Source: a virus
Lineage: Duplodnaviria > Heunggongvirae > Uroviricota > Caudoviricetes
Virus record (IMG/VR): IMGVR_UViG_2511231131_000009
Span: 1 to 48,521 of that record
Strand: one strand, 5' to 3'
DNA length: 48,521 bases
Positions 30,001 to 33,000 of this stretch are shown here, piece after piece. Made by a program: the position numbers. Position 1 is the stretch's first letter. Each line of letters starts with the position of its first letter.

Positions 30001-33000
30001 TGCCATTGCATGGTGCCGGGTGCCTCCCGGTGAATTCAGTACCAGCACCTGAATCCGCGATTATCCCATATACCTACTCGCTGATTGCCCCTCCGCACAG
30101 GGGGATTCACCATGCCAGTTTCTTTTAACAAACTCCCCGCAAACCAGACAACAGTCAACCGCCTGAATTGTGAGACATTTAAAAAAAAGGCCCGCAAAAG
30201 CGAGCCAGGGAAAATAAGTGTGGCGCGTTGTACTGGATTCGAACCAGTGACCGATTGCTTAGAAGGCAATTGCTCTGTCCGGCTGAGCTAACAACGCAGG
30301 ATACAGATAATGGACCGCCTTCGGGGACCCGAACTCCGCGCAACCAGCTTCGAAAGCTGGCGCTCTTTCCTGATGAGCTAATGGCGGTATGTGATGGTGG
30401 CCCTTGCTGGATTTGAACCAGCGACCTGGCGATTATGAGTCGCTCGCTCTCACCACTGAGCTAAAGGGCCGGGTCAAAAAATAATAATCAGATGAAAATC
30501 AATAATCAAGCCCTTGCCTGGATACATATCTGTCTGGCGGGAAGCCATAATAGCGGTGAAATACAGAAATAAAGTAGGACCAGCTTGAATAACCGCATTT
30601 TTCTGCTACAGCCTGTCCATATCCATGCCGGGAACATAACATATTGACAGCAACACGCATCCGCTCTTCCAGCAACAAGCGACTGAACATGTGCCCTTCA
30701 TTTTTCAGTTTTATCTTTAACAAACTCTCACTCATATGCAGGCGTAACGCAATCGCACCAAGCGTCCAGCTTGCTGATATATCTGTCTGAATTATCGCCC
30801 TGACTTTGGCACTTATACTGGATAAACATCCACTTAAAAATAATAATATCCGTTCATCTGATTCAAACAGCGACAGGCATACCATCATAAGAAACATATC
30901 CGTGGTATCTCCGGAAAATCTCTGGCTGGTAATTAAAGCCTCAACCAACGCAGGGTTGTTGGGTTCCAGTGACAGATAAAGCGGAACGTCAGTCAGATGA
31001 GTTCTTGTCAGCTTATGCTGAATTTCCAGATATTGACTTACTATGGAATGGTTTATATCGAAAATTTTAACTTTGCCATAATGCATAAGGAAAAGCGCCC
31101 TGATGCATTTGGTGGCCAGAACGACTGAGCCGGGCTTAAGTGACAACGTATCCTTTTCAAGAAAAATATTAATTGGGGAGCAAACCATGATAACTGAACA
31201 GACAACAACCATTATAATTTTACTTTCATTAGCAATTGGTTAGTTCAATTATAGCCCCAAAAGGTAAATTATCATCAACACATAAGCAAAGGACTGACAG
31301 GTGCCGCTAACACCCACCAGCCGCCCATTTACCACAAATAAAAAAGCCTTCAGGACTGAAGGCGTCTGTAACAACCGAACTGATAGTCTGCCAGACCCGC
31401 ATAACCAGCAGGGTCAGTATTAACTGGCAGCGCTCGCGTGAAAGGTACGTATTCTGCGCAATCTCCCCAACCGTCGCCGGTTCGGTGACGCTTAATTCAT
31501 CAAACACAACTCTGGCGGTTTCTGTCATATCCTGCTGTTTCAGCATGTCTTTTTACCCTTTCCGGTTAACGTGACACACCAATAACTCTTGTCGAAAAAG
31601 CCAGCAAGCTGAAAGACCTGTATTAATAACTACCAGCACATTTAACGCACTGCGCTACTTTGCGGGCACAAAAAACCCGCTCAGAGGCGGGGTCAAGCTA
31701 TGCGGCGAAATAACCACTCTTAACAGCATACCTGATTTTTTACGTACGTAAATGCTTTGCCGTGCATATTTTTCATGCAAATGTCACGTCCTGCTATTTT
31801 TCAGTCTTATAAATTTAAAACCATAGAAAAAATCAATTATGTTTTAAAAATGGATAGGTAAAGAATAACAAGTGACACAGATTCAAACCAAAATGGAAAA
31901 GGGTGGCAACCCACAAACGCCCACTCCACATCCATGACAATCCATACACAACACCAGATAACGTGGCAAATAATACAAGTAAAGCACCACCTGAATAGTG
32001 AAAAAAACCAAACAACAAAGCCGCCACAATTAATGCAACCAATGGAGACGTTACTTCTGATAGCCGTGATTGAATATACCCTCTAAATAATGATTCCTCT
32101 GCCAGAGACACAAAAAACAAATTAGCCAATATAAACTCTGGCAACCACTCAGGAAAATGAATCTCTGGCTTTAATCCACCAAAAAAAACAGCCAAAAACA
32201 GGATAAGAGGAACAGAGAGCGACAGAGCCCCCCACTTCCACAAAGACACTTCTGATTTTACTTCTTTTTTAAACAAAGAAGATGTACACAGGACTAACAA
32301 AAATGGCACCAGCGCTTTATCAAAATTAAAATACATTGTATAGGGAGTGCTTTGAGGGCCAACAGTAACAGAATTTAGCACTACAGGATTGTGAAACCCT
32401 GGCCATAGATGGAAAGATAATGCTATGGCTGATAAAACCATGCCAACTTCATATATAGATTTAGCCCAGGCGTTATATTTCCAGTTGAACTTCAAAATAA
32501 TAAAAAAAACGATTGTAGCAACAAAAAATAACACCGACCAATCAATAATATCATTAAGCACAGCCAGGACAACAGACACCGTCAACAATGAAAAAGCCAC
32601 TACCTTATGCCAACTGAGAGTTGACAGTGACAGTACTAACACAATCCACATAAGCACTCCTTTTATTTAATGATGAAGATTGATTATCAATATTTTCAAT
32701 TCACCAGGCAACATTTTATCTACCTTCCACAATACATGACCATCAAAAAAATAAACATGTTAATTATAAACGCAGAAAACATAACCCTCATCACTATATA
32801 TCCCTACCGCATATCCATATCTAACCGGACATTCAGAGCCATAAGCATTCCTTCAATAATACCTTCCGCTTTATAAAGCCTTTTACCAATAAGCCCATCA
32901 GAACATCTATGCTTACGTGCAAGAGCCATAAATGTCATTCCACCTACGTAATAATCCACCAACAAATCGTGCAAATACTGATTATTCTTGTTTAATCGTG

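Follow-up and report, generated by a model that had tools for sequence, protein, structure and literature searches.

Closest described systems and position of the locus

The gene order studied here is known from prophage Sp4 of Escherichia coli O157:H7 Sakai. There, ECs1084-ECs1088 (EDL933 Z1787-Z1789, O-island (OI) 50) comprise the antiterminator gene Q, a gene for a CPBP-family membrane protease, a 79-aa open reading frame (ORF), an AraC-family gene, the tRNA genes ileZ-argN-argO and an esterase gene. We analysed the same block in the IMG/VR virus record IMGVR_UViG_2511231131_000009, positions 1 to 48,521 (48,521 nt; hereafter the window). The window is an entire lambdoid prophage of E. coli O55:H7, inserted at serU/mtfA, and is 100% identical to CB9615. 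Its block has 97.4% DNA identity over 7 kb to ECs_1082-ECs_1088 of Sp4, carries the same frameshift in the small ORF and encodes a regulator, PsrA, that differs at 2 of 237 residues. The block lies in this serU/mtfA prophage and not at the site of Sp4 next to ECs_1054; the prophage that holds it carries an EspF-repeat (TccP-like) gene. All three protein genes of the block have already been described, as Z1787-Z1789 or ECs1085-1087; what is new here is the placement, by sequence comparison, of the late promoter between the protease gene and the other two.

The late promoter region pR'-StxS-tR' of the Shiga toxin (Stx) phages Sp5 and 933W (PMC7547250) shares with the window the Q family, the −35 element TTTACG, the block TAAGAGTGGTTA, a 5' hairpin and a promoter-proximal hairpin with a U-run. 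The Sp5 promoter overlaps a longer Q gene (144 aa) at its 3' end, and StxS (258 nt), tRNAs and stx2 come after it. In the window, by contrast, the CPBP gene separates Q from pR', which is placed 1.05 kb further downstream; a leader and the small ORF take the place of the StxS body, and no stx is found. In PA-2 and DLP12 (lc/nmpC) a lysogenic-conversion gene likewise stands between a QuuD/933W-type Q and the conserved promoter block, but that cargo is an outer-membrane porin encoded on the opposite strand, whereas the cargo in the window is an inner-membrane protease encoded on the strand of Q. The CPBP protein has in common with Rce1 (4cad), S. aureus SpdC/LyrA (6u0o) and 'Abi' proteins the PF02517 core, three motifs and a helical membrane fold; unlike the bacteriocin-immunity 'Abi' proteins, it has no evident partner or bacteriocin link. 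PsrA, PsrB and PatE (Tree 2011; Yang 2015; Bender 2012, as reviewed in PMC10877973) are YdeO/GadX-like AraC regulators on effector-bearing lambdoid prophages, and the window protein is essentially PsrA.

The gap from the end of Q (32804) to the start of tRNA-Ile(CAU) (30470) on the minus strand measures 2,333 bp. It holds three ORFs, all on the minus strand, which encode the CPBP/Rce1-like protein, the 79-aa product and the AraC-family protein. The initial annotation had located these ORFs correctly and had described about 2.3 kb of AT-rich DNA, in agreement with GC contents of 36% for the CPBP cassette, 29% for the Q-CPBP spacer and 40% for the psrA cassette against 51% for the whole window and 54-55% for neighbouring genes. 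It had also treated the genes as one accessory cluster. The genes are indeed all there, but instead of a single cluster we see two insertions on either side of pR'. We put a probability of about 0.8 on the reading that the interval consists of two separate cargo insertions flanking the late promoter of a lambdoid prophage with a 933W-type Q. The features on which this reading draws are as follows.

32804..33175, minus strand: antiterminator Q, 933W/QuuD type, 123 aa from the PGAP start (PF06530, E = 5e-52)
32652..32803, minus strand: AT-rich Q-CPBP spacer, 152 bp, 29% GC, with three sigma-70-like sites (promoter scan, GC)
31833..32651, minus strand: gene for a CPBP/Rce1-like intramembrane glutamic protease, 272 aa, orthologue of Z1787/ECs1085 (Pfam PF02517, motifs, Z1787 primers)
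31718..31752, minus strand: predicted late promoter pR', −35 TTTACG (31752-31747), 16-nt spacer, −10 TATGCT (31730-31725) (homology to Sp5)
31702..31722, minus strand: start-site/initial-transcribed block TAAGAGTGGTTA and 5' hairpin GUGGU-N6-GCCGC, +2 to +17 (seven-phage alignment, fold)
31670..31693, minus strand: promoter-proximal hairpin with U6, resembling an intrinsic terminator (terminator scan, fold, conserved across phages)
31307..31546, minus strand: 79-aa ORF, a frameshifted 65-aa phage gene (phrog_331; 'TrmB family' in PGAP), equal to ECs1086 (alignments, PHROG)
31340..31363, minus strand: second hairpin resembling an intrinsic terminator, GCCTTCAG-TCCT-CTGAAGGC with T6, overlapping the stop codon of the intact small gene (scan)
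31248..31275, minus strand: psrA promoter-like site ATGATA-16-TATAAT (promoter scan, 10/12 consensus, best score in the scanned region)
30499..31212, minus strand: psrA, YdeO-like AraC-family regulator, 237 aa (identity to ECs_1087, HTH profiles)

Antiterminator Q and the late promoter

Q is a member of a short (about 123-144 aa) PF06530 clade, and its longest ORF begins at 33184. Its identity is 81% to Q933W (Stx2a phage Sp5) and 79-95% to the Qs of PhiR40_1, DLP12/434B and three other CPBP-carrying prophages; the solved Q21 structure was matched distantly.

For Sp5, a start at 1,266,203 was determined by dRNA-seq and a 3' end at 1,266,460 by Term-seq in the coordinates of NC_002695.1 (Sy et al. 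2020, PMC7547250). We moved both positions to NC_002695.2 by a single, inferred offset of +142. With this offset the start is the A seven bases past TATCAT, within TAAGAGTGG, and the 3' end is the last T of the terminator T-run, 258 nt from the start. The offset is fixed because start and 3' end fit two independent features. The predicted pR' start in the window, A31718, is the A of TAAGAGTGG, lies 7 nt past the −10 and is the same A as the Sp5 start. Its equivalent in Sakai Sp4 is at about 1,178,171 of NC_002695.2.

An alignment of seven phages showed that the −35, the −10, the TAAGAGTGGTTA block and the hairpin were conserved, and homology to the pR' regions of other phages started precisely at the −35. 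The 12-mer TAAGAGTGGTTA was invariant in the seven phages, all with the 933W-type Q family, and occurred once in the window and once in each other carrier locus; it was not present in the Stx2k phage locus, whose Q differs. The whole pR' unit, from the −35 to the hairpin and U-run (31752-31670), was likewise single in the window, 3' of the CPBP gene and 5' of the small ORF. In the DLP12-derived late region of 434B the block is found past nmpC, some 120 nt upstream of the holin gene. Base changes between phages keep the pairing of the 5' hairpin at +2 to +17 (GUGGU-N6-GCCRC). The TAAGAGTGGTTA block together with this hairpin is a candidate qut, or Q-engagement, region. We regard the position of the late promoter, which the initial annotation had left open, as settled by homology at 31752-31718, between the CPBP gene and the small ORF.

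The promoter-proximal hairpin extends from about +23 to +49, so that it ends some 49 nt after the predicted start, and in all aligned phages the hairpin with its U-run folds like an efficient terminator. The conserved segment of 933W-type pR' regions that holds it corresponds to 31670-31718 (minus strand) of the window and to 845-893 of comparison locus L011. No Rfam family was found for the pR' leader. The 66-nt prophage small RNA (sRNA) HnrS has been described (PMC13502914). As a possible identity for a short pR' transcript it was sought with a degenerate complement of the mazF 3' end and with the Sp9 terminator; neither search gave a match, and the test is a weak one.

Cargo in the gap between Q and pR'

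The sequences compared identify the gap between Q and pR' as a recurrent cargo site. It is occupied by the lc/nmpC porin gene in PA-2 and DLP12, by an oppositely oriented lipoprotein gene in PhiR40_1 and by a 410-aa gene (L22) in phiP27. In three other E. coli/Shigella prophages the gap holds CPBP alleles 85%, 62% and 59% identical to that of the window, and each of these is then followed by TTTACG...TATNNT, with the same −35 and −10. The 85% allele belongs to a Stx-converting prophage (L024 3479-6833; GCA_012267765.1, AASCED010000023.1), in which Q, the CPBP gene, the late promoter and stxA-stxB are found without psrA. The 62% and 59% alleles lie in the Q-pR' gaps of the prophages at loci L022 and L023. 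Phage phiSTEC1575-Stx2k (L002 3696-4500) carries a 141-aa gene with a lipoprotein-like N-terminus between two near-identical tR'-type terminators. This bracketing suggests that cargo was inserted by recombination at the terminator.

The CPBP protease gene

The longest frame of the protease gene runs from a GTG over 31833-32657. The ATG at 32651, preceded by AAGGAG 5 nt upstream and also chosen by PGAP, is almost certainly the true start. The protein matched PF02517 (Rce1-like) with E = 2e-19 and 70 bits (cut-off 22.4). The EExxxR motif is EESLFR at residues 185-190, the second motif is FGFFH at 214-218 and the third is HFGLN at 253-257; residues E185, E186, R190, F214, H218, H253 and N257 are invariant in 22 homologues. 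The family and the EExxFR, FxxxH and HxxxN motifs named in the initial annotation are therefore confirmed, and loss of the catalytic motifs, which it had given as grounds for rejection, was not seen. Its description of the product as a metalloprotease does not hold, as the family is now annotated as glutamic intramembrane endopeptidases. An AlphaFold2 model (mean pLDDT 95) predicts an integral membrane protein that is helical throughout. The top two matches of this model in the PDB were Rce1 (4cad) and SpdC (6u0o), with weak E-values of 0.02-0.05; SpdC aligned with a TM-score of 0.48 and a probability of 0.99, and no other CPBP-family structures were among the fold results.

Of 5426 complete E. 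coli genomes, 571 carried the gene, very seldom in more than one copy, and 547 of these carriers had it at an identity of at least 99%. Stand-alone chromosomal genes for full-length homologues (about 50% identity) occur widely in Enterobacterales, for example in the order modF-CPBP-galE in Hafnia and in the same modF-linked position in Providencia. The window protein and these homologues belong to a distinct Enterobacterales subfamily, about 272 aa long, whose N-terminal half has conserved features of its own (HxxPGFxN ... MYxNxDKA).

The terminator scan found no terminator-like site between Q and the CPBP gene. The absence of a terminator after Q, together with the three promoter-like sites in the leader, makes expression of the CPBP gene in the lysogen plausible. 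The Q-CPBP spacer is probably the site of the gene's own promoter. It is conserved only with the closest allele, that of L024, and when the spacers of the four CPBP alleles were aligned no promoter was common to all four.

The CPBP gene contains exact matches to both published Z1787 qRT-PCR primers. In the lysogen, Z1787 mRNA was present and rose 2.7-fold on contact with HEp-2 cells (Jandu et al. 2009, PMC2654852). In the same study a Z1787 deletion mutant no longer blocked interferon (IFN)-gamma-induced STAT-1 phosphorylation, complementation was only partial, and transfer of Z1787 to HB101 had only a partial effect (PMC2654852). In a later paper the same laboratory wrote that the factor inhibiting STAT-1 had yet to be identified (PMC3256229). 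The deletion precedes pR' by about 80 bp and psrA by 620 bp; because of this proximity its phenotype may possibly have been a polar effect on pR' or on PsrA. We read the CPBP gene as a lysogenic-conversion gene whose product would act on an envelope substrate.

The small gene and the second terminator

Downstream of pR' the order is first hairpin, broken small gene, second terminator, psrA promoter-like site, psrA, tRNA promoter-like site and tRNAs. The 79-aa ORF noted in the initial annotation is present but proved to be the frameshifted remnant of a 65-aa gene. The window and Sakai both lack a single G after codon 49, which puts the last 30 codons out of frame. The frameshift was recognized by aligning the ORF, as protein and as DNA, with its intact counterparts in phiP27, Stx2a_1447 and the Stx2k phage; PGAP also flags the ORF as 'frameshifted'. 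In these three phages the 65-aa gene stands directly 3' of the late-promoter terminator; in Sakai Sp9 it is at the same place, after a different Q. The intact genes terminate within the loop of the terminator hairpin. This second terminator is kept in the Stx2k phage and in Sakai Sp4.

The regulator gene psrA

The AraC-family protein is identical at 235 of 237 residues to the product of the long ORF of Sakai ECs_1087, so that the comparison with PsrA proposed in the initial annotation resolves into near identity. ECs_1087 was named psrA by Poudyal et al. 2026 (PMC13502914), and a review of 2024 lists psrA under Z1789 in O-island 50 (PMC10877973). The C-terminal double helix-turn-helix (HTH) of the AraC type scored 36.6 bits with HTH_18 and 35.3 bits with HTH_AraC, both above the cut-offs, which bears out the assignment to this family. 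YdeO was the best NCBIfam match (E = 1e-29), aligned from residue 1, and GadX also matched. The alignment from residue 1 supports the long start codon. ECs_1087 is annotated in Sakai from an internal ATG with 195 aa (L005 28804-29391), while CB9615 has the long form in PGAP; judged from the alignment, the Sakai start is probably too short.

PsrA shares 88% identity with a homologue in the Stx2k-converting phage phiSTEC1575, and only 37% with ECs_0287, the sole AraC-like gene of Sakai Sp1 and presumably PatE. Genes like psrA were present in 725 genomes (median copy number two), and at an identity of at least 99% in 503. The −10 of the psrA promoter-like site is kept upstream of the 88%-identical gene in phiSTEC1575-Stx2k, and the site may serve as a promoter. 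PsrA, from O157, raises GadE and YhiF, increases acid resistance and represses type III secretion of the enterocyte effacement locus (LEE), and its paralogue PsrB as well as PatE activate acid resistance (PMC10877973). The YdeO-like profile match agrees with these published roles. PsrB is Z2104 of OI-57, with a published identity figure of 90%; it was sought in Sakai Sp9 and in the DNA to its right, where no AraC gene was found.

Proposed transcription of the interval and alternative explanations

The transcription scheme that we propose is built on the gene identities, the motifs, the homology that links the promoter block with a mapped start, and the frameshift. The CPBP gene lies in the gap between Q and its cognate pR' and would hence be outside the Q-antiterminated late operon. 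It would probably be transcribed in the lysogen, from one or more promoters in the spacer or by read-through from Q, and yield a multi-pass membrane protein with an intact glutamic-protease centre acting on an envelope substrate. Then would follow pR', the start-site/qut block and the promoter-proximal terminator at 31752-31670, the frameshifted 65-aa gene and the second terminator. In lysogens psrA may be expressed from its own promoter-like site, which would explain its activity when they are uninduced. Because psrA is downstream of pR' and on the same strand, the known behaviour of Q antitermination implies that after induction the Q-modified late transcript would include psrA as well, besides the tRNAs, the lysis genes and the esterase gene. 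Promoter use, read-through and the activity and substrate of the CPBP protein are predictions of this scheme.

Several points weigh against this reading. The pR' call depends on homology to Sp5 and on the inferred +142 offset between NC_002695.1 and NC_002695.2. The three promoter-like sites in the Q-CPBP spacer leave room for a second late-type promoter, and past the −10 the block is only partly conserved in the two CPBP-carrying prophages that diverge most. The terminator-like hairpin at +28 to +49 is difficult to reconcile with the 258 nt reported for the Sp5 pR' transcript, StxS (PMC7547250); the hairpin may be leaky, with a product of about 49 nt lost in library preparation, or it may alternatively belong to the site of Q engagement. 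The function of the CPBP protein is backed by no more than one partly complemented mutant (PMC2654852), and the factor was later called unidentified (PMC3256229).

If the late promoter followed Q directly, as in Stx phages, the CPBP gene, the small ORF and psrA would all be late-operon cargo. The promoter of Sp5 abuts Q, and three sigma-70-like sites are present in the 152-bp spacer of the window. However, the spacer shows no similarity to any of the pR' regions recovered, while the block matching the mapped Sp5 start occurs once, downstream of the CPBP gene. In DLP12/434B, PhiR40_1 and phiP27, moreover, the same Q family is parted from this block by unrelated, often oppositely oriented genes. 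We rejected a pR' directly after Q on the dissimilarity of the spacer and the single downstream block, and consider it quite improbable. The interval could also be decaying, silent prophage DNA without current function, in line with the frameshifted small ORF, other pseudogenes in the prophage and AT-rich DNA that is a likely target of H-NS. The intact frames of the CPBP gene and psrA, kept at an identity of at least 99% in 547 and 503 genomes, and the published transcripts and mutant phenotypes for both genes (Z1787 and psrA) make this explanation the hardest of all to credit.

Other functions of the CPBP protein must be weighed as well. PF02517 members are bacteriocin self-immunity proteins in Gram-positive bacteria. 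A role in bacteriocin or toxin immunity, or in phage exclusion of the abortive-infection (Abi) type, for the lysogen would suit this family membership, one database name ('CAAX amino terminal protease self-immunity'), the prophage cargo site and catalytic residues that are intact across CPBP alleles of 59-100% identity. The initial annotation had named such roles for CPBP proteins, but they found no support here: PADLOC (E <= 0.01) gave no defence match for any of the three products (CPBP protein, small ORF, PsrA), and no bacteriocin gene was found in the prophage or beside the chromosomal CPBP homologues. We regard a role of this kind as unlikely. The proposal made for Z1787, that the product is a released protease acting on host cells and blocking IFN-gamma/STAT-1 signalling, draws on the loss of STAT-1 inhibition in the deletion mutant and on increased expression upon HEp-2 contact (PMC2654852). 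It seems very improbable to us for a protein that is predicted to be integral to the membrane and not secreted. Complementation and transfer to HB101 had partial effects (PMC2654852), the factor was later still unidentified (PMC3256229), and the deletion may have been polar on PsrA.

Implications of the predicted late promoter position

The presence of a near-identical psrA on a different prophage in the O55:H7 progenitor lineage is expected and not surprising. PsrA is an established link of prophage carriage with the GAD acid-resistance regulon and type III secretion in enterohaemorrhagic E. coli (EHEC). The transcription map predicts unlike expression logic for the genes of the interval, with the protease gene outside the Q-controlled operon and psrA inside it. 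It also cautions that the published phenotype of the Z1787 deletion could be polar on pR' or psrA.

We tentatively suggest a wider, combined proposal, more probably wrong than right, in which the CPBP gene is selectively maintained as cargo of the Q-pR' gap in prophages with a 933W-type Q and the Q of a Stx phage switches on psrA in trans. The start-site block of the psrA late operon is identical to that of Stx1 and Stx2a phages. If the proposal were true, the CPBP protein would be produced in the lysogen without need of the late switch, cut a specific envelope substrate and confer a trait such as exclusion, toxin immunity or altered interaction with host cells. Induction of a co-resident Stx phage could then be coupled, via its Q (81% identical), to PsrA, acid resistance and LEE repression.

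Flanking regions of the prophage

The early and late operons of the prophage, Q through the lysis genes included, are all on the minus strand. A scan of the interval for inverted repeats gave nothing beyond the second terminator and small AT-rich palindromes. Features adjoining the interval and elsewhere in the prophage are listed below.

30481..30509, minus strand: tRNA promoter-like site TTGATT-17-TATTAT, just upstream of tRNA-Ile and overlapping the psrA stop codon (promoter scan)
30221..30470, minus strand: tRNA cluster ileZ (CAU), argN (UCG), argO (UCU) (ARAGORN and Rfam; annotated likewise in Sakai)
37790-38749, minus strand: SIR2-family gene
37263-37418, minus strand: hokD
35363-36466, minus strand: helix-turn-helix protein gene
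282-1007, plus strand: EspF-repeat gene
7060-7587, plus strand: sodC
2783-3382, minus strand: Lom/Ail gene

A tRNA promoter has been reported at the equivalent place in Sp5 (PMC7547250), and by analogy the site at 30481-30509 may be used in the window. No stx was present between argO and the nanS-p-type esterase gene, which are 489 bp apart. An sRNA of the STnc100 family (RF02076, 138 bits) was found at 29954-30144 (minus strand) between argO and the esterase gene, which is the stx position of Stx phages, and a hairpin with T7 at 29925-29946 faces it on the opposite (plus) strand. Convergent 'anti-sRNA' pairs of the AsxR/AgvB type are reported from Sakai prophages by Tree et al. 2014, and the position of the STnc100/hairpin pair corresponds to theirs.

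The early region contains the SIR2-family gene, hokD and the gene for a 368-aa helix-turn-helix protein, with a 216-aa hypothetical gene after it; all of them could be cargo with defence or toxin-antitoxin functions. The tail end carries the EspF-repeat (TccP-like) effector gene, sodC and the Lom/Ail gene. The presence of effector genes there agrees with the published link of psrA to effector-carrying prophages.

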